From a phage: DNA of 64,000 nt. Numbering within the stretch: position 1 is the first letter of the stretch; each line of letters starts with the position of its first letter. Under the pieces are notes generated by a model. The model ran no database searches, was not told the DNA's origin, and was given only the letters and a program-made list of their open reading frames with translations. Below are positions 53,424 through 63,932 of the stretch, one piece after another. Made by a program: the position numbers and the translations under genes. The DNA lies in the sequence record PZ179880.1; one strand, given 5' to 3'.

Positions 53424-54341
53424 TCAAAATTCATTAATGCTATTAGTTAATTTAGAAAGACCCGCTTTTACAAAATATGAATAAATTTTGCCACGCGGTG
53501 GTAATTTATATGAATTATAGTAATTCACAATGTTTGAAGCAATATTATCAGGAATATAATCAAAGTCAATTAGAACTAAATTTTCTTTATATCGATTATA
53601 TTCAGATTCAGTGAGAAGCACCTTAGCTTGCTCACGGTCATTAGCAATAGCTTCAACAATAGATGTTTTCATTGAAGGAGTTCGTTCACCTTCAACTCTG
53701 GTAAACCAAAAGTCAGATCGTACTTTAACTGAAGCAACGTTATCCTTTTTGTCGCCTTTAAGGATTTTAGTCATGCAATCAATTTCAGCAGAACCGCTTT
53801 TAATTTTAACCCATTTCTTATGCATCGGTGACCATTGCTTAACATTTGGATACTTGTGAAGTTGAGTAAAGTCACCATCCGATGAAATGATTAAAATTTT
53901 ATGTCCTTCTAAAGAGAACTTTTTAACAAGCACAGCAATGTGGTCATCTGCTTCATACTTATCAATATCCATAACAATGTATGGCATATAAGCTTTCAAT
54001 TCATCTATAACTTTATGACTGGATTCAAAATAACCTTCCCAGTCCCAAGTAGATTCTTCTCGTGCTTTTCCACGGTTTTTCTTATAATAATAAGCAAAAT
54101 CACGACGCCAGTATCCGGATTTTGCGTTATCGATACACAATACAATTTTAGTGTATCCAAGAGTTTTTGCTTTTTTGACATTAAACTTAATTGAGTTCAA
54201 TATCAAATGACGAACCATTGATAAGTTAATTTTTTCTTTATCTGGAAAGTTTACTAAAGCAGTTGAAAGCGCAATTTGACTAAAGTCAATTAAGCAAATT
54301 CCTTCTTTGTAATCTTCATCCAGCATCATTTCTAAATCCAT
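53424..54341 (-). CDS. rnh: RNase H (5-prime to 3-prime exonuclease, FEN family)
   Basis: 305 aa from Met MDLEMMLDEDY; matches recalled T4 RNase H. Confidence 0.92.
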   Translation of the reverse strand: MDLEMMLDEDYKEGICLIDFSQIALSTALVNFPDKEKINLSMVRHLILNSIKFNVKKAKTLGYTKIVLCIDNAKSGYWRRDFAYYYKKNRGKAREESTWDWEGYFESSHKVIDELKAYMPYIVMDIDKYEADDHIAVLVKKFSLEGHKILIISSDGDFTQLHKYPNVKQWSPMHKKWVKIKSGSAEIDCMTKILKGDKKDNVASVKVRSDFWFTRVEGERTPSMKTSIVEAIANDREQAKVLLTESEYNRYKENLVLIDFDYIPDNIASNIVNYYNSYKLPPRGKIYSYFVKAGLSKLTNSINEF

Positions 54342-54403
54342 ATGAACCTCGTTCAATTAGTGAGATTTCTATTATATACTATCCAAATCTTAAAGTAAAC
54401 AAG

Positions 54404-54411
54404 TATAAATA
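54404..54411 (+). promoter_or_regulatory. T4-type late promoter for gene 34
   Basis: Exact TATAAATA ~35 nt upstream of the gene 34 ATG. Confidence 0.7.
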
Positions 54412-54445
54412 CTTATTATTGAAAACACAATAGGAGCCCGGGAGA

Positions 54446-57400
54446 ATGGCCGAGATTAAAAGAAAGTTCAGAGCAGAAGACGGTCTGGACGCAGGTGGCG
54501 ATAAAATAATCAATGTAGCTTTAGCTGATCGTACCGTAGGAACTGACGGTGTTAACGTTGATTACTTAATTCAAGAAAACACAGTTCAACAATATGATCC
54601 AACTCGTGGATATTTAAAAGATTTTGTAATCATTTATAATAATCGTTTTTGGGCAGCAACGGATAATATTCCAAAACCTGCTGGAAGTTTTAATAGAATT
54701 CGTTGGAAAGCATTACGTACTGATGCCGTATATACAACCGTATCATCTGGACCATATCAATTAAAATCCGGAGAAGCAATTTCAGTAGATACATCAGTTG
54801 GTAATGACATTGAGTTTAATTTACCGCCTTCTCCGCTTGATGGAGAAACCGTAATAATTCAAGATATTGGTGGAAAACCTGGTATAAATCAGGTTAAAAT
54901 AAATTCTTCAAATCAGAGTATTGTTAATTTTAGAGGTGAACAAGTACGTTCAGTTCTAATGACTCATCCAAAGTCACAGATGATATTCATTTTTAATAAT
55001 CGTTTGTGGCAAATGTATGTTGCTGATTATAGCAGAGAAGCTGCGATTGTTACTCCATCGACTGCATATCAAGCACAATCTAATGATTTTATCGTGCGTA
55101 GATTTACTTCCGCTGCGCCGATTAATATTAAACTTCCGAGATTTGCTAATCATGGCGATATTATTAATTTCGTTGATTTAGATAAATTAAATCCACTTTA
55201 TCATACAATTGTCACGACATATGATGAAACAACTTCAGTACAAGAAGTTGGAACTCATTCTATTGAAGGCCGTACATCGATTGACGGTTTCTTGATGTTT
55301 GATGATAATGAAAAATTATGGAGATTGTTTGACGGGGATAGTAAAGCGCGTTTACGCATTATAACAACTAATTCTAATATTCGTCCAAATGAAGAAGTTA
55401 TGGTATTTGGAGCGAATAACGGAACAACCCAAACAATTGAACTTCAGCTTCCAACTGATATTTCCATTGGTGATACTGTTAAAATTTCCATGAATTACAT
55501 GAGAAAAGGACAAACAGTTAAAATCAAAGCTGCTGGTGAAGATAAAATTGCTTCTTCAGTTCAATTGCTGCAATTCCCAAAACGCTCAGAATATCCACCT
55601 GAAGCTGAATGGGTGACTGTCCAAGAATTAGTTTTCAATGGTGAAACTAATTATGTTCCGGTTTTACAACTTGCTTATATAGAAGATTCTGACGGAAAAT
55701 ACTGGGTTGTACAACAAAACGTTCCAACGGTTGAAAGAGTCGATTCTTTAAATAATTCTACTAGAGCAAGATTAGGCGTAATTGCTTTAGCTACACAAGC
55801 TCAAGCAAATGCTGATTTAGAAAATTCTCCGCAAAAAGAATTAGCAATTACACCAGAAACATTAGCTAACCGTACTGCTACAGAAACTCGTAGAGGTATC
55901 GCAAGAATAGCAACTACTGCTCAAGTAAATCAGAACACTACATTCTCTTTTGCTGATGACCTTATCATCACTCCTAAAAAGCTGAATGAAAGAACTGCTA
56001 CAGAAACTCGTAGAGGCGTTGCTGAAATTGCCACGCAACAAGAAACTAATACAGGTACTGATGATACTACAATCATCACTCCTAAAAAGCTTCAAGCTCG
56101 TCAAGGTTCTGAATCATTATCTGGTATTGTAACCTTTGTATCTACTGCAGGAGCTACTCCAGCTTCTAGTCGTGAATTAAATGGTACAAATGTTTATAAT
56201 AAAAACACTAATAATTTAGTTGTTTCGCCTAAAGCTTTGGATCAGTATAAAGCTACTCCAACGCAACAAGGTGCAGTAATTTTAGCAGTTGAAAGTGAAG
56301 TAATTGCTGGACAAAGCCAAGAAGGATGGGCAAATGCGGTTGTAACGCCAGAAACGTTACATAAAAAGACATCAACTGATGCAAGAATTGGTTTAATTGA
56401 AATTGCTACGCAAAGTGAAGTTAATACAGGAACTGATTATACTCGTGCAGTCACTCCTAAAACTTTAAATGACCGTAAAGCAACTGAAAGTTTAAGTGGT
56501 ATAGCTGAAATTGCTACACAAGTTGAATTCGACGCAGGCGTCGACGATACTCGTATCTCTACACCATTAAAAATTAAAACCAGATTTAATAGTACTGATC
56601 GTACTTCTGTTGTTGCTCTATCTGGATTAGTTGAATCAGGAACTCTCTGGGACCATTATACCCTTAATATTCTTGAAGCAAATGAGACACAGCGTGGTAC
56701 ACTTCGTGTGGCTACGCAAGTTGAAGCTGCTGCAGGAACATTGGATAATGTTCTAATAACTCCTAAAAAGCTTTTAGGTACTAAATCTACTGAAGCGCAG
56801 GAAGGCGTTATTAAAGTTGCAACTCGGTCTGAAACTGTAGCTGGAACGTCAGCAAATACTGCTGTATCTCCAAAAAATTTAAAATGGATTGTGCAGAGTG
56901 AACCTACTTGGGCAGCTACTACTGCGATAAGAGGTTTTGTTAAAACCTCATCTGGTTCAATTACGTTCGTTGGTAATGATACAGCTGGTTCTACGCAGGA
57001 CTTAGAACTATATGAGAAAAATAACTATGCAGTATCACCATATGAATTAAACCGCGTATTAGCAAATTATTTGCCGTTAAAAGCAAAAGCTGTAGATAGT
57101 AATTTATTAGATGGTTTAGATTCACTCCAGTTCATTCGTAGGGATATTGCGCAGACGGTTAATGGTTCACTAACCTTAACACAGCAAACGAATCTGAGTG
57201 CCCCTCTTGTATCATCTAGTACTGCTACATTTGGTGGATCAGTTTCAGCAAATAGTACATTAACTATTTCTAATACTGGAACGGCAACTCGTCTGATTTT
57301 TGAGAAAGGACCTCAAACTGGAACAAACCCGGCTCAAACGATGACAGTCAGAGTGTGGGGAAATCAATTTAGTGGGGAGTCAGACACAACACGTTCTACT

Positions 57401-58315
57401 GTATTTGAAGTTAGTGATGAAACTTCTAGTCATTTTTATTCTCAGCGTAATAAAGCTGGTAATATAACATTTAATATCAACGGTACAGTAACACCGATAA
57501 ATGTGAATGCTTCAGGAACATTGAATGCGAATGGCGTTGCAACATTTGGTAATTCAGTCACTGCAACTGGTGAAATTATTTCTCGAAGCGCAAATGCTTT
57601 CCGTGCTATTAATGGAAATTACGGTTTCATTATTCGTAATGACGGGTCAGTAACGAATTTTATGCTTACTGCATCAGGCAATCAAACTGGTGGATTTAAT
57701 GGATTGCGTCCATTGTCCATTAATAATCAATCTGGGCAGGTCACAATTGGTGAAAGCTTGATCATTGCTAAAGGTGCTACTATAAATTCAGGTGGTTTAA
57801 CTGTTAACTCGAGAATTCGTTCTCAAGGTGTTAAAACATCTGATTTATATACCCGCGCTCCGACATCTGATACCGTAGGATTCTGGTCAATCGATATTAA
57901 TGATTCAGCCACTTATAACCAGTTCCCGGGTTATTTTAAAATGGTTGAAAAAACTAATGAAGTTACTGGACTTCCATACTTAGAACGTGGCGAAGAAGTT
58001 AAATCTCCTGGTACATTGACTCAGTTTGGTAACACACTTGATTCACTTTACCAAGATTGGATTACTTATCCAACGACTCCAGAAGCACGTACCACTCGCT
58101 GGACACGTACATGGCAAAAAACTAAAAACTCTTGGTCAAGTTTTGTTCAGGTATTTGACGGAGGTAACCCTCCTCAACCTTCAGATATAGGAGCGATCCC
58201 ATCTGATAATGGAATAATAGGTAATCTTACTATTCGTGATTTCTTACGAATTGGTAATGTTCGCATTATTCCTGACCCAGTGAATAAAACTGTTAAATTT
58301 GAATGGGTTGAATAA
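54446..58315 (+). CDS. 34: Long tail fiber proximal subunit gp34
   Basis: 1289-aa ORF (T4 gp34 length); internal tail-fibre repeat motifs; late promoter upstream. Confidence 0.93.
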   Translation: MAEIKRKFRAEDGLDAGGDKIINVALADRTVGTDGVNVDYLIQENTVQQYDPTRGYLKDFVIIYNNRFWAATDNIPKPAGSFNRIRWKALRTDAVYTTVSSGPYQLKSGEAISVDTSVGNDIEFNLPPSPLDGETVIIQDIGGKPGINQVKINSSNQSIVNFRGEQVRSVLMTHPKSQMIFIFNNRLWQMYVADYSREAAIVTPSTAYQAQSNDFIVRRFTSAAPINIKLPRFANHGDIINFVDLDKLNPLYHTIVTTYDETTSVQEVGTHSIEGRTSIDGFLMFDDNEKLWRLFDGDSKARLRIITTNSNIRPNEEVMVFGANNGTTQTIELQLPTDISIGDTVKISMNYMRKGQTVKIKAAGEDKIASSVQLLQFPKRSEYPPEAEWVTVQELVFNGETNYVPVLQLAYIEDSDGKYWVVQQNVPTVERVDSLNNSTRARLGVIALATQAQANADLENSPQKELAITPETLANRTATETRRGIARIATTAQVNQNTTFSFADDLIITPKKLNERTATETRRGVAEIATQQETNTGTDDTTIITPKKLQARQGSESLSGIVTFVSTAGATPASSRELNGTNVYNKNTNNLVVSPKALDQYKATPTQQGAVILAVESEVIAGQSQEGWANAVVTPETLHKKTSTDARIGLIEIATQSEVNTGTDYTRAVTPKTLNDRKATESLSGIAEIATQVEFDAGVDDTRISTPLKIKTRFNSTDRTSVVALSGLVESGTLWDHYTLNILEANETQRGTLRVATQVEAAAGTLDNVLITPKKLLGTKSTEAQEGVIKVATRSETVAGTSANTAVSPKNLKWIVQSEPTWAATTAIRGFVKTSSGSITFVGNDTAGSTQDLELYEKNNYAVSPYELNRVLANYLPLKAKAVDSNLLDGLDSLQFIRRDIAQTVNGSLTLTQQTNLSAPLVSSSTATFGGSVSANSTLTISNTGTATRLIFEKGPQTGTNPAQTMTVRVWGNQFSGESDTTRSTVFEVSDETSSHFYSQRNKAGNITFNINGTVTPINVNASGTLNANGVATFGNSVTATGEIISRSANAFRAINGNYGFIIRNDGSVTNFMLTASGNQTGGFNGLRPLSINNQSGQVTIGESLIIAKGATINSGGLTVNSRIRSQGVKTSDLYTRAPTSDTVGFWSIDINDSATYNQFPGYFKMVEKTNEVTGLPYLERGEEVKSPGTLTQFGNTLDSLYQDWITYPTTPEARTTRWTRTWQKTKNSWSSFVQVFDGGNPPQPSDIGAIPSDNGIIGNLTIRDFLRIGNVRIIPDPVNKTVKFEWVE
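55840..56890 (+). repeat. Tail-fibre repeat array within gene 34
   Basis: Recurrent ~39-aa units (TPETLANRTATETRRGIARIAT / TPKKLNERTATETRRGVAEIAT / TPKTLNDRKATESLSGIAEIAT ...), with matching DNA strings such as ctgctacagaaactcgtagagg repeated ~117 bp apart; approximate bounds. Confidence 0.75.
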
Positions 58316-58323
58316 GAGGTATT

Positions 58324-59439
58324 ATGGAAAAATTTATGGCAGAGTTTGGACAAGGATATGTCCAAACGCCATTTTTATCGGAAAGCAATTCAGTAAGATA
58401 TAAAATAAGCATAGCGGGCTCTTGCCCGCTTTCTACTGCAGGGCCATATGTTAAATTTCAGGATAATCCCGTTGGAAATCAAACATTTAGTGCAGGTCTT
58501 CATTTAAGAGTTTTTGACCCTTCTACGGGAGCATTAGTTGATAGTAAGTCATATGCTTTTTCTGCTTCAAACAATACAACATCTGCCGCTTTTGTCAGTT
58601 TTATGAATTCTTTGTCAAACAATAGACTTGTTGCTATATTAACTAGCGGAAAGGTTAATTTTCCTCCTGAAGTGGTATCTTGGTTAAGGGGAGCAGGAAC
58701 TTCAGTTTTTCCATCAGATTCAGTATTGTCAAGATTTGACGTATCATATGCTGCTTTTTATACTTCTTCTAAAAGAGCTATTGCATTAGAGCATGTTAAA
58801 CTAAGTAATAGAAAAAGCACAGATGATTATCAAACTATTTTAGATGTTGTATTTGATAGTTTAGAAGACGTCGGAGCTACGGGATTTCCTAAAAGAACAT
58901 ATGAAAGTGTCGAGCAATTTATGTCAGCGGTTGGTGGAACTAACAACGAAATTGCGCGATTGCCAACTTCAGCTGCTATAAGTAAACTATCTGATTATAA
59001 TTTAATTCCTGGTGATGTTCTTTATCTTAAAGCACAGTTATATGCTGATGCTGATTTACTTGATCTTGGAACTACAAATATATCTATCCGTTTTTATAAT
59101 GCATCAAATGGATATATTTCTTCAACACAGGCTGAGTTTACTGGGCAAGCTGGGTCATGGGAATTAAAGGAAGATTATGTAGTTGTTCCTGAAAATGCAG
59201 TCGGATTTACTATATATGCGCAGAGAACTGCTCAAGCTGGTCAAGGCGGAATGAGGAATTTAAGCTTTTCTGAAGTATCAAGAAATGGCGGCATTTCAAA
59301 ACCTGCCGAATTTGGCGTCAACGGTATTCGTGTTAATTATGTCTGTGAATCGGCTTCACCTCCAGATATAATGGTACTTCCTACACAAGCCTCTTCTAAA
59401 ACTGGCAAAGTGTTTGGGCAAGAATTTAGAGAAGTTTAA
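58324..59439 (+). CDS. 35: Long tail fiber hinge (knee) protein gp35
   Basis: 371-aa ORF, T4 gp35 position and near-identical length. Confidence 0.9.
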   Translation: MEKFMAEFGQGYVQTPFLSESNSVRYKISIAGSCPLSTAGPYVKFQDNPVGNQTFSAGLHLRVFDPSTGALVDSKSYAFSASNNTTSAAFVSFMNSLSNNRLVAILTSGKVNFPPEVVSWLRGAGTSVFPSDSVLSRFDVSYAAFYTSSKRAIALEHVKLSNRKSTDDYQTILDVVFDSLEDVGATGFPKRTYESVEQFMSAVGGTNNEIARLPTSAAISKLSDYNLIPGDVLYLKAQLYADADLLDLGTTNISIRFYNASNGYISSTQAEFTGQAGSWELKEDYVVVPENAVGFTIYAQRTAQAGQGGMRNLSFSEVSRNGGISKPAEFGVNGIRVNYVCESASPPDIMVLPTQASSKTGKVFGQEFREV

Positions 59440-59444
59440 ACTGA

Positions 59445-59462
59445 GGGAGCCTTCGGGTTCCC
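59445..59462 (+). terminator. Terminator after gene 35
   Basis: GGGAGCC-TTCG-GGTTCCC (one G-U wobble) followed by TTTTTCTTT. Confidence 0.75.
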
Positions 59463-59470
59463 TTTTTCTT

Positions 59471-59478
59471 TATAAATA
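59471..59478 (+). promoter_or_regulatory. T4-type late promoter for gene 36
   Basis: Exact TATAAATA after the gene 35 terminator, ~24 nt upstream of the gene 36 ATG. Confidence 0.7.
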
Positions 59479-59501
59479 ATATTAAAATAAAGGGGCATAT
59501 A

Positions 59502-60152
59502 ATGGCTGATTTAAAAGTAGGTTCAACTGTGGGTGGATCTGTCATTTGGCATCAAGGAAATTTTCCATTGAATTCAGCCGGTGACGATGTACTCTACAAA
59601 TCATTTAAAATATATTCAGAATATAATAAACCACAGGCAGCTGATAACGATTTCGTTTCTAAAGCTAATGGTGGTACTTACACCGGTCCAATTACTATTA
59701 ATTACGGGGTAAATAGTTATCTTCAATTAAGTAATAATGAAACCCCTATCCGAATTCGTTCTGGTGGCGGCACCGGTAATACTCTTGTAATCGGTGGCTC
59801 TTCTGGTGGTATTAGTTTTAGACCTGCAGGTAGTGAAATCACTACTGGACAAATTACTATTACGCCAGAAGGTTTGACAACATTCACTAAAGCTGTAAAG
59901 GCTCCATCTGTAACTGTTACATCTACTCCTTCCGCAGCATCAGATGCTACTCGTAAAGATTATGTTGATGGAGCAATAAATACTGTTACAGCAAATGCAA
60001 ACTCTAGAGTGTTACGATCTGGTGACACCATGACAGGAAATTTAACTGCGCCAAACCTTTTTTCACAGAATCCTGCATCTCAACCTTCACACGTTCCACG
60101 ATTTGACCAAATCGTAATTAAGGATTCTGTTCAAGATTTCGGCTATTATTAA
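59502..60152 (+). CDS. 36: Long tail fiber distal connector gp36
   Basis: 216-aa ORF; late promoter upstream; T4 gp36 position. Confidence 0.9.
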   Translation: MADLKVGSTVGGSVIWHQGNFPLNSAGDDVLYKSFKIYSEYNKPQAADNDFVSKANGGTYTGPITINYGVNSYLQLSNNETPIRIRSGGGTGNTLVIGGSSGGISFRPAGSEITTGQITITPEGLTTFTKAVKAPSVTVTSTPSAASDATRKDYVDGAINTVTANANSRVLRSGDTMTGNLTAPNLFSQNPASQPSHVPRFDQIVIKDSVQDFGYY

Positions 60153-60160
60153 GAGGACTT

Positions 60161-63112
60161 ATGGCTACTTTAAAACAAATACAATTTAAAAGAAGCAAAA
60201 CCGCAGGTCAACTTCCTGCTGCTTCAGTATTAGCCGAAGGTGAATTGGCTATTAATTTAAAAGATAAAACAATTTTCACAAAAGATGACTCAGGCAATGT
60301 TATAGAATTAGGTTTAAAATATGGAGGAACAATTGATGGTTCTTTAACTGTTAATGGAAATATAATTGGAAATTTAACAGGTAACGCTGCAACTGCAACG
60401 AAATTAAAAACAGCACGAAAAATTAATGGTATATCCTTTGATGGGTCAAAAGATATCACGCTAACTCCATCTGACATAAATGTCAATAGCACAACATTTA
60501 TAAAAAATAACGGCGAATTACCTGTTGATGCTAATTTAGATGAGTACGGGCCTGTTGAAGAATATCTTGGAGTTTGGTCGAAAGCAACTTCAACCAACGC
60601 TCAACCAGCAAATAAATTTCCAGAAGAAAATGCTGTAGGTGTGCTAGAAGTATTTGTAGCCGGTCAATTTGCTGGTACTCAGAGATATACAACTAGATAC
60701 GGAAATGTTTATATTCGTTCCTTGACTGCTACATGGAACGGAGTAAATGGTCCGTGGAGTGTGTGGCGAAATATTCAATCCGGTACTCGTCCACTGTCAA
60801 CAACAATTGATCTTAATGATCTAGGAGGCGCTGAACACTTTGGTTTGTGGCGAAATAGTTCAAATTCCATTGCTACCTTTGACAGAAATTTCCCAGAAGA
60901 GGGGTCGTCAGCTAAAGGTCTTTTGGAAGTATATGAAGGGGGAAGCTATTCTCGTACACAAAGATATACAACCATGTTTGGTGTTGTTTATACTCGCTGT
61001 CTTACTGCTGCGTGGGATGCTTCTGCGCCTAAATGGGGACCGTGGCAACAAGTCGGTAATGTCACACCAGCGACTTTTTATGATGGAGATCTGAATGATT
61101 TTAAAACTCCTGGGTTATATAATATTTTAGGCACTGATGCCGTTATTAATTGTCCTACAGGCGAAGGTTTACCAGCCGTTATTGTTGGTTTGCTGGAAGT
61201 TAAACAGCGTGCTTCTGGCGGTGCTATTTTCCAAAAATTTACTACTGCCGGAACAGGTGCAACTACTCGCGATCGTATTTTTGAGCGTGCATATACTGGT
61301 GGTGCGTGGGGTGCATGGAACGAAGTATATACATCTTATTCTCTGCCAATTACTTTGGGTATGGGTGGCATTAAAGCTCAATTAGCGGAGTTAGATTGGC
61401 AAACCTTTGATTTTGTCCCTGGTAGTATGTTTAGCGTTCCTTTGAATAAAATAAAGAACATGCCAGCAAATATGAATTGGGGGACGATTGATGGAAACTT
61501 GGTTATGTTTTCTGTCGGTCCTAGCGAGCATACTGGCACAGGGCGTACTGTTCAGGTTTGGCGTGGTACTGTATCCCAGACAAACTACCGTTATTTTGTC
61601 GTTCGTGTATTCGGTAATTCAGGAAATAGAACTTGCACAGTTCGTCGTGTTGTTCTTGAAGACGGATCACATACTTGGACTGCTCAACAAAACTTTAGAG
61701 GATTGTTGAATATCACTGCTGTTGTTAATCTTGGCGCTAATCAGAAAATTTCACTTGCTCCAGGAGCATATATTCAAGCCCCTGCTAGCGGTTCTGGTTC
61801 TAATACTTACGCAAATCAGAATACTACTATTGCGCCATTATATCAGGCCATTGACGATTCAAATAAAAACCAGTTTGCTCCTATTGTAAAACAGAAAAAC
61901 ACTGTAACAAATATTACTATGGCTTCTGGTATGGATATTGCTAGTTCAGAATATCGTATCATTGCTCAAGGTGATTTATCCGCTACTGGAACTACAGCTA
62001 ATGAATTAGCTACATGGCGTTTCTTGCCGTCTGGCCGATTCATGTCACAAAGCCGAGTTTATGCTGGCGCAGCATTCTTGAACACTGATGGTAACATTGC
62101 TGGTTCAATCTGGAAGAAATACAACAATGCAACCAACTTAGACGCTGCTTTGAATACTCGCGTAGGTAAAAGCGGTGATACGATGACAGGTCGGTTAACA
62201 ATCAATGCACCTAATGATGTTATTGTATTATCAACAACTGCTAGTAATTCTTTGTATATTCGCGGTGATATAGACGGGACTGGTAACTGGTATATTGGTA
62301 GGGGTGGTGGTGATGATAATGGATTAGCGTTCCATAGTTATGCTAATAATGCTGGTGTATACATTACAAACAATGGTGAGATTGCGTTAAACCCGCAAAA
62401 TACCGCAATGGTTAACGTTAACCGTGACCGTGTACGCATTAACGGTTCTGGATGGATTGCTAGACAACCGGGTGATTGGGGCAACCAATGGCGAGTAGAA
62501 GCTCCATTATTCGTTGATCATGGTTATGTTTCACCGGATTGTTATTATCCAATTATTAAAGGAAGAAGTGTAATCACCAATCAAGGATATAGCACCGCTG
62601 TTGACTTTGGTATGCGTCGTATTCCATCACAGTGGGGGCAAGCAATCATTCGTGTCGGATCCACGGAGGCTTCTCCTGATGCTGGACACCCACAAGCTGT
62701 GTTTGAATTCCATCATGATGGATTCTTTTATACACCAGGAAATGGTAGCTTTAGCGATGTGTATATTCGTTCTGACTCCCGTCTCAAGATTAATAAAGAA
62801 GAATTAGAATATGGAGCAGTCGAAAAAGTTTGCCGACTGAAAGTTTATATTTACGATAAAGTTAAGTCTATTAAAGACCGTAGTGTTATTAAACGTGAAG
62901 TTGGTATTATTGCTCAGGACCTTGAAAAGGAATTACCGGAAGCTGTATCTAAGGTTGAAGTTGATGGATCTGATGTTCTGACAATTTCTAACTCTGCTGT
63001 GAATGCTCTTTTAATTAAGGCTATTCAGGAAATGAATGAAGAAATTAAAGAATTGAAAACGCCTCTCTTTACTAAAATTGCTCGCAAAATTAGTAAATAT
63101 TTTAAATTCTAA
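60161..63112 (+). CDS. 37: Long tail fiber distal subunit gp37 with C-terminal intramolecular-chaperone-like domain
   Basis: 983-aa ORF; N-terminus similar to gp36/gp37 joining region; C-terminal ~120 aa resemble the auto-processed chaperone domains of other phage fibres. Confidence 0.9.
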   Translation: MATLKQIQFKRSKTAGQLPAASVLAEGELAINLKDKTIFTKDDSGNVIELGLKYGGTIDGSLTVNGNIIGNLTGNAATATKLKTARKINGISFDGSKDITLTPSDINVNSTTFIKNNGELPVDANLDEYGPVEEYLGVWSKATSTNAQPANKFPEENAVGVLEVFVAGQFAGTQRYTTRYGNVYIRSLTATWNGVNGPWSVWRNIQSGTRPLSTTIDLNDLGGAEHFGLWRNSSNSIATFDRNFPEEGSSAKGLLEVYEGGSYSRTQRYTTMFGVVYTRCLTAAWDASAPKWGPWQQVGNVTPATFYDGDLNDFKTPGLYNILGTDAVINCPTGEGLPAVIVGLLEVKQRASGGAIFQKFTTAGTGATTRDRIFERAYTGGAWGAWNEVYTSYSLPITLGMGGIKAQLAELDWQTFDFVPGSMFSVPLNKIKNMPANMNWGTIDGNLVMFSVGPSEHTGTGRTVQVWRGTVSQTNYRYFVVRVFGNSGNRTCTVRRVVLEDGSHTWTAQQNFRGLLNITAVVNLGANQKISLAPGAYIQAPASGSGSNTYANQNTTIAPLYQAIDDSNKNQFAPIVKQKNTVTNITMASGMDIASSEYRIIAQGDLSATGTTANELATWRFLPSGRFMSQSRVYAGAAFLNTDGNIAGSIWKKYNNATNLDAALNTRVGKSGDTMTGRLTINAPNDVIVLSTTASNSLYIRGDIDGTGNWYIGRGGGDDNGLAFHSYANNAGVYITNNGEIALNPQNTAMVNVNRDRVRINGSGWIARQPGDWGNQWRVEAPLFVDHGYVSPDCYYPIIKGRSVITNQGYSTAVDFGMRRIPSQWGQAIIRVGSTEASPDAGHPQAVFEFHHDGFFYTPGNGSFSDVYIRSDSRLKINKEELEYGAVEKVCRLKVYIYDKVKSIKDRSVIKREVGIIAQDLEKELPEAVSKVEVDGSDVLTISNSAVNALLIKAIQEMNEEIKELKTPLFTKIARKISKYFKF

Positions 63113-63149: not shown

Positions 63150-63932
63150 ATGGCAGTAGTTGGAGTTCCTGGCTGGATTGGAAGTTCAGCCGTAAATGAA
63201 ACGGGACAGCGCTGGATGAGTCAAGCGGCTGGTCAATTAAGATTGGGTGTTCCTTGCTGGATGAGTCAATTTGCAGGTCGCTCACGAGAAATTATTCACA
63301 CGCTTGGAGCAGACCATAACTTCAATGGTCAATGGTTCCGAGATAGATGTTTTGAGGCAGGTAGTGCACCTATAGTGTTTAATATCACTGGAGATTTAGT
63401 ATCATATTCTAAAGATGTTCCTTTATTCTTCATGTACGGAGATACACCGAATGAATATGTTCAGTTGAACATACATGGTGTAACGATGTATGGCCGTGGC
63501 GGGAATGGCGGTAGCAATAGTCCTGGCTCAGCTGGGGGTCATTGTATTCAAAATGATATTGGTGGGAGACTAAGAATTAATAATGGCGGAGCTATTGCTG
63601 GCGGCGGTGGCGGTGGCGGCGGCGGGTATTATTCTCCTTTTTCACAAATGAGATTGACCTTTGGCGGTGGCGGCGGTCGTCCGTTTGGCGCACCGGGCGG
63701 ATCTATTGATATGCAATCAGGAGCAACTGCTGGTACTATTTCTTCGCCAGGCGCAGGGTCTGTGAACGGTATCTACAACGGCGGGTCTGGTGGTGAAGTT
63801 GGCTCCGCAGGAGGTAGATGTAATATTCGTGGTCAAGGATATGAATACGATGGCGGAGCTGCTGGTTATGCCGTCATAGGGTCTACACCGACATGGCAAA
63901 ACGTTGGAGCAATATATGGTCCAAGAGTATAA
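63150..63932 (+). CDS. 38: Receptor-recognising adhesin gp38 (T2 type, glycine-rich motifs)
   Basis: 260-aa ORF; poly-Gly motifs ([23 protein letters not shown]) separating variable segments, typical of T2-type gp38 adhesins rather than the 183-aa T4 chaperone. Confidence 0.88.

Follow-up and report, generated by a model that had tools for sequence, protein, structure and literature searches.

Gene 34 of this phage encodes the proximal subunit of the long tail fibre, and the middle of the protein is made of tandem repeats. Is this array a place where fibre modules are exchanged by recombination, or is it a fixed part of the fibre's framework? An earlier note on this DNA, made from the sequence alone, had taken the first view. 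We examined what the repeats are, how they vary across related phages, and where gene 34 recombines. (By the window, we mean the whole stretch of phage DNA that was analysed, which is 64,000 nucleotides long.) The window is a segment of a Tequatrovirus (a T4-like phage) and carries T4-type late genes, from gene 17 to gene 38.

The identity of the gene, which the earlier note gave as gp34, stands. The predicted protein matches the "Long-tail fiber proximal subunit" of PDB entry 9x3r (chain 9x3r_M, 1289 aa) over residues 1-1289 (E = 0). PHROG 972 ("tail fiber protein proximal subunit") covers the same 1-1289 (E = 0), and there are also matches to the T4 crystal fragments 5nxh, 5nxf, and 4uxe (5nxh_A over 726-1289, E = 0). 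A Pfam search with the whole protein at E <= 1 returned only two domains, both C-terminal: Gp34_trimer (PF21446, aa 980-1092, E = 1.3e-31) and Gp34_2nd (PF21560, aa 1139-1237, E = 1.5e-37). The ORFs 3' of gene 34 match ILEI (gp35-like), Phage_T4_gp36, gp37_trimer, and GP38 (the adhesin gp38). On the other side is a 310-aa ORF on the minus strand in the position of rnh, which makes it a putative rnh by position. The gene order is rnh (divergent)-34-35-36-37-38, and the neighbours are annotated likewise at orthologous loci. Full-length homology, the C-terminal domains, and gene order all agree that this is a T4-type gp34. The gene is 97.9% identical at the nucleotide level to the long-tail-fibre proximal subunit gene of Escherichia phage YUEEL01, and 590 phage records have matches over 80% or more of its length. 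Within the long-tail-fibre locus, gene 34 has been described as the gene that is conserved best (PMC3157838).

We set the borders of the repeat units by cutting at a recurrent motif, [ST]PxxL, which is found in all ten units (at aa 469, 509, 545, 594, 634, 670, 706, 772, 808, and 864, with a spacing of 36-66 aa). The array consists of ten units of 36-56 aa (R1-R10) and one 30-aa linker that is not a repeat. It spans aa 436-871, or nt 55751-57058 of the window. The gene and the parts of the array are as follows.

54446..58315, + strand: gene 34, long-tail-fibre proximal subunit, 1289 aa (ORF; PDB 9x3r; PHROG 972; Pfam)
55751..55873, + strand: R1, 41 aa (aa 436-476); hhalign E = 3.6e-9; [ST]PxxL at aa 469
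55874..55993, + strand: R2, 40 aa (aa 477-516); hhalign E = 4.5e-17; its first 23 nt recur exactly at 55994
55994..56101, + strand: R3, 36 aa, canonical (aa 517-552); member of profile A1; Smith-Waterman scores of 97-103 to R2, R6, and R7
56102..56248, + strand: R4, 49 aa (aa 553-601), with a long insertion in the variable loop; full-unit hhalign E = 2.1e-7
56249..56368, + strand: R5, 40 aa (aa 602-641); hhalign E = 2.1e-12
56369..56476, + strand: R6, 36 aa, canonical (aa 642-677); member of profile A1; Smith-Waterman score of 103 to R3
56477..56584, + strand: R7, 36 aa, canonical (aa 678-713); member of profile A1; third copy of DNA repeat family D1
56585..56674, + strand: 30-aa linker (aa 714-743), conserved and not a repeat; hhalign does not match it to the unit profile (E = 0.29)
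56675..56782, + strand: R8, 36 aa (aa 744-779); hhalign E = 8.3e-20; i-E of 2.3e-9 with an HMM trained without R8
56783..56890, + strand: R9, 36 aa, canonical (aa 780-815); member of profile A1
56891..57058, + strand: R10, 56 aa (aa 816-871), with a long loop; hhalign E = 9.1e-6

At least eight copies had been placed at 55840-56890 (aa 465-815), which starts at the end of R1 and stops exactly where R9 ends. There are indeed copies there (R2-R9), but the array is wider and has ten units. The unit has a consensus of xATETxxGxxEIATQxETxAGTDxxxxVTPKKLxxR (about 36 aa), with loop insertions in some units. In an alignment of 36 canonical units taken from nine phages, every unit has G8, and the conservation of A13, T14, E17, and P30 is 90% or higher. 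The consensus that had been reported before, TPKKL/TPETL followed by ATExRRGxAxIAT, corresponds to a real unit boundary. We also considered whether the linker at 714-743 might be a degenerate half-unit, and rejected this because of its E value against the unit profile (0.29). The linker is kept at nearly equal length in all ten orthologues. When we searched six-frame segments of the window with an HMM of the phage's own units, we found no further copies outside gp34 at E < 10, and gp37 had no match in this search. (For gp37, a passage in PMC3004832 mentions one partial repeat.)

We then asked if the units are truly homologous. First, pairwise Smith-Waterman scores among the ten units average 47.8, as compared to 20.5 +/- 0.64 for per-unit shuffles (z ~ 40). 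Second, we used a non-circular test in which the profile was built from R3, R6, R7, and R9 only, from ten phages, and the other units were held out. (These are the window phage, T4, RB69, QL01, phiEap-3, CF-SP2, Abraxas, Aeromonas phage 25, Vibrio QD01, and phiAS5. The nine added phages represent at least seven further genera, and the ten genomes represent at least eight genera of Straboviridae.) Full-length comparison with hhalign recovered the ortholog profiles of all six held-out units, with E values from 8.3e-20 for R8 to 9.1e-6 for R10 (the values for R1, R2, R4, and R5 are listed above). The negative controls, which were three other segments of gp34 and the stretch at 714-746, gave E values of 0.3-0.8. 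The alternative would be that the periodicity is an artefact of composition or low complexity and that the units are not homologous. This would fit with the lack of any hit from Tandem Repeats Finder at the DNA level and with the weak scores of R4 and R10 in plain pairwise comparisons (18-46). But the shuffle test, the profile-profile E values with their flat controls, and the recognition of the same unit in independent gp12 proteins and crystal structures (see below) refute it, and we give it essentially no weight. This is a genuine internal repeat of a fibre protein, as had been proposed.

At the DNA level, there is much less repetition. Repeated DNA strings had been reported for the array, and we did find two exact pairs that are not expected in shuffled sequences, both between R2 and R3: a 23-nt pair at 55874 and 55994 (a spacing of 120 nt) and a 20-nt pair at 55964 and 56072 (a spacing of 108 nt). 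Such strings are few, however, as all other pairs of units share at most 15 nt of exact sequence. Tandem Repeats Finder, run on 54000-60000 with a minimum score of 30, reported nothing, because the DNA copies are too diverged. With so few exact strings and no tandem repeat detected, this is a repeat at the protein level whose DNA has largely diverged.

What kind of fibre repeat is it? The earlier note had described the usual phage tail-fibre repeat and had proposed a Pfam scan for phage fibre repeat families as a check. Phage_fiber and Phage_fiber_2 are the generic Pfam families of phage tail-fibre repeats. The array had no match to any such generic model at E <= 10. Instead, the array alone, again at E <= 10, matched only the first ~30 positions of gp12-short_mid (PF09089), with a marginal score of 27.1 bits. 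Pfam is without a dedicated model for the unit, and NCBIfam returned no family. In a tblastn search, the gp34 unit had weak hits in small Burkholderia phages, where it matched tail fibres with 51% identity over 55 aa (E = 3e-4). So, the array is a structural fibre repeat, but of a specific type that is shared by gp12 and gp34 and that belongs to no generic Pfam family.

The kinship with gp12, the short tail fibre, is clear from several comparisons. Within the PDB, the unit profile matches only gp34 and short-tail-fibre chains: it has four stretches in T4 gp12 (5iv5, E = 1.1e-16), four in the gp12 of 9f4b, three in the Gp12 of 5lye, and one in gp92 of 9zd7. Also, phmmer aligns residues 599-700 of gp34 with residues 179-276 of gp12 (E = 4.9e-14), and PHROG 910 matches gp34 in five stretches. 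Given the unit signature, the location of the repeats in the middle third of the protein, and the presence of the unit in gp12, this is the mixed alpha-beta repeat of gp12 and gp34.

The array is thus already known, in both sequence and structure, as the published gp12/gp34 quasi-repeat. A passage in Leiman et al. 2010 (PMC3004832) cites Cerritelli et al. 1996 for this quasi-repeat; the passage correlates it with the rod-like shaft of ~400 A and gives six occurrences in gp12. The published range of the tandem array in gp34 is 438-797, which was later extended to 868. Granell et al. 2017 solved the structure of residues 744-1289 of gp34 (PDB 5NXH and 5NXF; PMC5537660). Three of the units were crystallised and form a trimeric domain of mixed alpha-beta type; the crystallised residues include 744-877. 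In that structure, each unit has a tight turn and a beta-strand that starts at the conserved glycine. After a short helix come a variable loop and then a helix that is capped by Ser/Thr-Pro and that forms a three-helix bundle around the three-fold axis. Residues 182-215 of gp12 superpose on the gp34 units (Granell et al. 2017; PMC5537660). The conserved residues of our consensus (the glycine, A13, T14, E17, and P30) fit with the structural roles described there. Because the array is 97.0% identical in amino acid sequence to that of T4, R8, R9, and R10 are the three crystallised repeats. From this identity, we infer that the units in our phage have the same trimeric fold; for R1-R7, the fold is predicted from their homology to R8-R10. 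A T4 preprint from 2026 maps the proximal rod at low resolution and does not mention the repeats, and our literature search identified no paper that describes the full-length entries 9x3r and 9f4a.

We conclude that the array very probably consists of the shaft-forming repeats of the trimeric proximal half of a T4-type long tail fibre. By analogy with the T4 crystal structure, each unit of the homotrimer would form one compact mixed alpha-beta domain. The invariant glycine would allow the sharp turn that opens a beta-strand pointing outward, and the short helix and the variable loop would follow. The chain would then come back to the axis, where the conserved Ser/Thr-Pro would cap a short helix. 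At the three-fold axis, this capped helix would pack with its two symmetry mates into a three-helix bundle. Ten of these domains, stacked head to tail along with the 30-aa linker, would make a thin and rigid rod. This rod would lie between the N-terminal domain that attaches to the baseplate and the C-terminal beta-helix and prism domains that join gp35/gp36. The role of the array would be architectural (length, stiffness, and stability of the trimer) and not the recognition of receptors.

We then compared the architecture of the array across the Straboviridae. The window phage, T4, and RB69 have the same unit lengths, which are 41/40/36/49/40/36/36/66/36/56 (with the linker included in R8). 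In representatives of Dhakavirus, Slopekvirus, Gelderlandvirus, Lazarusvirus, and Tulanevirus, the unit lengths are within a few residues of T4's. Some units are longer in an unclassified Vibrio phage (by at most 14 residues) and in a Chrysonvirus (by at most 6 residues). All ten genomes have ten units, the canonical units are 36 aa almost everywhere, and the long loops are always in R4 and R10. Among Tequatroviruses, all eight of the genes that we compared are exactly 3870 nt long. Furthermore, when gp34 is divided into thirds, the array is the one with the highest conservation in eight of nine comparisons. In RB69, for example, the array is 83.7% identical, versus 68.5% and 62.1% for the other two thirds. 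This rigidity of the array's architecture across the family is new here, as a description only.

The fixed number and lengths of the units, together with the constant positions of the loops in R4 and R10, suggest a geometric constraint on the length of the rod and on where the loops lie along it. Granell et al. (PMC5537660) hypothesised, from a fit at low resolution, that the loops of R4 and R10 touch the sheath when the fibre is retracted. It is possible, although we would lean against it, that the array is a molecular ruler of fixed length. In that case, the number of units, their lengths, and the positions of R4 and R10 would be held constant so that the rod matches the geometry of the tail and sheath for docking in the retracted state. 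Deletions or duplications of a single unit, in frame and made possible mechanically by the 20- and 23-nt direct repeats of R2/R3, would arise and would be removed by selection.

The earlier note had taken such arrays to be substrates of recombination through which fibre modules are exchanged. On this reading, unequal or inter-repeat homologous recombination would expand, contract, or reshuffle the units. Several observations could be cited for this. The R2/R3 pairs (23 nt at a spacing of 120 nt, and 20 nt at a spacing of 108 nt) are placed so that recombination between them would lose or gain exactly one unit, in frame. The 23-nt match is longer than predicted by resampling synonymous codons (13 +/- 2.6 nt; the observed length was reached in 0 of 200 resamples). 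The codon identity of R2 and R3 is slightly higher within genomes (0.54) than between genomes (0.43), and gp34 is clearly mosaic among Tequatroviruses. But we have several pieces of evidence against recombination of this kind in the array.

First, the number of units does not vary. None of the 17 gp34 genes that we compared in full is a copy-number variant, and neither is any of 40 records sampled evenly from 1503. In this sample, the matched spans were 1296-1362 nt for a query of 1311 nt, with the differences in the loops; in one Vibrio phage, the span was 1449 nt.

Second, the similarity between orthologous units of different phages greatly exceeds that between paralogous units. For RB69, the ortholog score is 184 and the paralog score is 48; for Acinetobacter phage Abraxas, they are 101 and 40. 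Across the comparisons, the ortholog means range from 211 down to 67, as compared to paralog means of 40-49. The best match is the ortholog for 8-10 of the ten units, down to ~50% identity, so the units have not been homogenised and there is no concerted evolution. Also, the paralog means are the same within a genome as across genomes. Together with the much greater similarity of orthologs, this implies that the duplications predate the family and that the units have evolved independently since then.

Third, the shared DNA is short, as it does not exceed 23 nt for R2/R3 or 15 nt for any other pair. When we looked for concerted evolution at the codon level across 21 pairs of units, we found only the weak excess for R2-R3. 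Its z of ~2.7 is before correction for the 21 pairs, and the excess would not survive that correction; it is also confounded by the codon usage of each genome.

Fourth, the major mosaic junction of gene 34 lies outside the array:

57184..57247, + strand: main mosaic junction relative to the closest relatives, outside the array (maximum chi-square, gene nt 2739-2802)

The maximum chi-square breakpoint fell at these nucleotides (aa ~915-934) in three of the four triplets that we tested (permutation p = 0.002). Sliding-window identity has variable patches at aa ~50-250 and ~925-1100.

Overall, none of the three hallmarks of a recombination-active array (copy-number variation, concerted evolution, and long DNA identity) was found, and we consider it very unlikely that the array is such a substrate. 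The array is a fixed and highly conserved scaffold rather than a variable recombination array. A caveat is that rare events between R2 and R3, with the loss or gain of a unit in frame, are conceivable, because recombination in T4 is said to need only small patches of homology (<50 bp; this is from a passage in PMC2839356 that cites Singer 1982). The product of such an event was seen in none of the compared genes.

Recombination might involve the array in another way. As a conserved stretch, the array could act as a zone for in-register crossovers between co-infecting phages, which would reassort the N- and C-terminal parts of gp34 independently of the internal repetition. The nearest relatives do differ along the gene: they are SF2-1 and fPS-90 for the N-terminal part (99.3-99.4% identity), CT01 for the array (99.2%), and ECO07P4 for the C-terminal part (98.2%). 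There are also small switches of nearest relative inside the array. Identity in the N-terminal part is bimodal across records (179 at 95% or above and 315 at 80-90%), while identity in the array is unimodal and high (421 of 570 at 95% or above). However, the breakpoint with the strongest signal lies 3' of the array, where the beta-helix region starts, and only four triplets were tested. Moreover, any conserved stretch would behave alike, so crossovers in the array would be a by-product of its conservation and not its function. We think it improbable that the array serves as a crossover zone. In-register exchange inside the array can occur between co-infecting phages, but it owes nothing to the array's internal repetitiveness.

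The significance of the array hardly goes beyond annotation, where it identifies P2, the rod of the proximal long tail fibre. This part of gp34 is a conserved scaffold and not a determinant of host range. For the engineering of fibres, the boundaries of the units can be placed precisely, and the natural junctions between modules of gene 34 are just downstream of the array (aa ~915-934) and not inside it. A change in the number of units would be without precedent in natural variation.

Finally, we compared the array to known systems. The generic Pfam fibre families resemble gp34 in that they describe short periodic motifs in trimeric phage fibres. Another known system is the distal fibres of T-even phages, in which the glycine-rich motifs of gp38 and the conserved motifs of gp37 (Tetart 1998; Trojet 2011) are, like the gp34 units, conserved motifs in long-tail-fibre genes. 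For gp37 and gp38, swapping of specificity segments via these motifs is documented (PMC3157838). But the motifs of gp37 and gp38 border hypervariable receptor-binding segments, whereas the gp34 units border nothing variable, and their gene is the best conserved of the locus. The short tail fibre gp12 (PDB 5IV5) has the ~36-aa unit in common with gp34, but six units are reported for gp12, as compared to ten in gp34, and gp12 has a different C-terminal receptor-binding part. (The window starts at gene 17 and does not encode gp12.) The closest system is gp34 of T4 itself, which is the same gene with the same length (1289 aa) and the same unit boundaries. R4 corresponds to the published "additional repeat 552-598" (Granell 2017), and R8, R9, and R10 correspond to the crystallised repeats at 744-776, 780-812, and about 822-868. 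In the T4 counterpart of R10, the loop at 837-859 forms a beta-hairpin in the crystal structure. There is no difference of substance from the T4 system. Most of the sequence divergence from T4 lies in other parts of gp34 than the array (aa ~50-250 and ~925-1100), with nucleotide identity there down to 68-87%.

Comparison with close Tequatrovirus relatives shows that gp34 (the proximal subunit of the long tail fibre) has a mosaic structure. If the protein is divided into the array of ten repeat units (R1-R10) and the parts on either side of it, then each of the three stretches has a different nearest relative: SF2-1/fPS-90 for the N-terminal part, CT01 for the array, and ECO07P4/BW-1 for the C-terminal part. 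The main junction is a short way past the 3' end of the array, and a variable patch is present on each side of the array:

54593-55195, variable patch on the N-terminal side of gp34 (aa ~50-250)
57184-57247, main mosaic junction (aa ~915-934)
57218-57745, variable patch on the C-terminal side of gp34 (aa ~925-1100)

The C-terminal patch is only 68-76% identical to T4.

Within the array, two exact direct repeats in the DNA link R2 to R3:

55874-55896 and 55994-56016, exact direct repeat of 23 nt, 120-nt spacing
55964-55983 and 56072-56091, exact direct repeat of 20 nt, 108-nt spacing

If either pair recombined, then exactly one unit would be lost or gained, in frame. The 23-nt match is longer than the value from resampling of synonymous codons (13 +/- 2.6). 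In T4, the match at the same place is 20 nt long, and in more distant phages it is 7-17 nt. (We also noticed an 80-aa, TTG-initiated antisense ORF within R1-R3, at 55862-56104 on the minus strand, whose frame is most likely open by chance.)

The array is interrupted between R7 and R8 by a conserved segment:

56585-56674, 30-aa segment FNSTDRTSVVALSGLVESGTLWDHYTLNILE (gp34 aa 714-743)

This segment does not match the profile built from canonical gp34 units. It is present, at nearly constant length, in all ten of the Straboviridae orthologues that we compared.

A search of a phage database with the gp34 unit gave weak matches beyond the T4-like phages. These include 55 records named Burkholderia, among which are phages of ~37 kb whose annotation names a tail fibre protein; the match there has 51% identity across 55 aa, with E = 3e-4. 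Other weak matches are to the tail fibre of a 39.6-kb Winogradskyella phage (40% over 99 aa) and to one Microcystis phage. The literature on gp12 and gp34 may understate how widely the gp34 unit, or one that resembles it, is distributed.

The fibre genes downstream of gp34 include these:

58324-59439, gp35 (371 aa), of which aa 58-112 match the Pfam family ILEI (interleukin-like EMT inducer) with E = 8e-8
60161-63112, gp37 (983 aa), whose C-terminal part includes an intramolecular chaperone domain (Peptidase_S74, aa 871-929)
63150-63932, gp38 (260 aa), next after gp37, with matches to Pfam GP38 ("tail fibre adhesin") and Gp38_N

Among T-even phages, the combination of Peptidase_S74 in gp37 followed by a GP38 adhesin is the distal fibre tip of the T2/T6 type rather than that of T4. 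As for gp35, an ILEI/PANDER-like domain has been described in the kneecap protein of T4 (2026 preprint), and the ILEI match that we found here agrees with that description.
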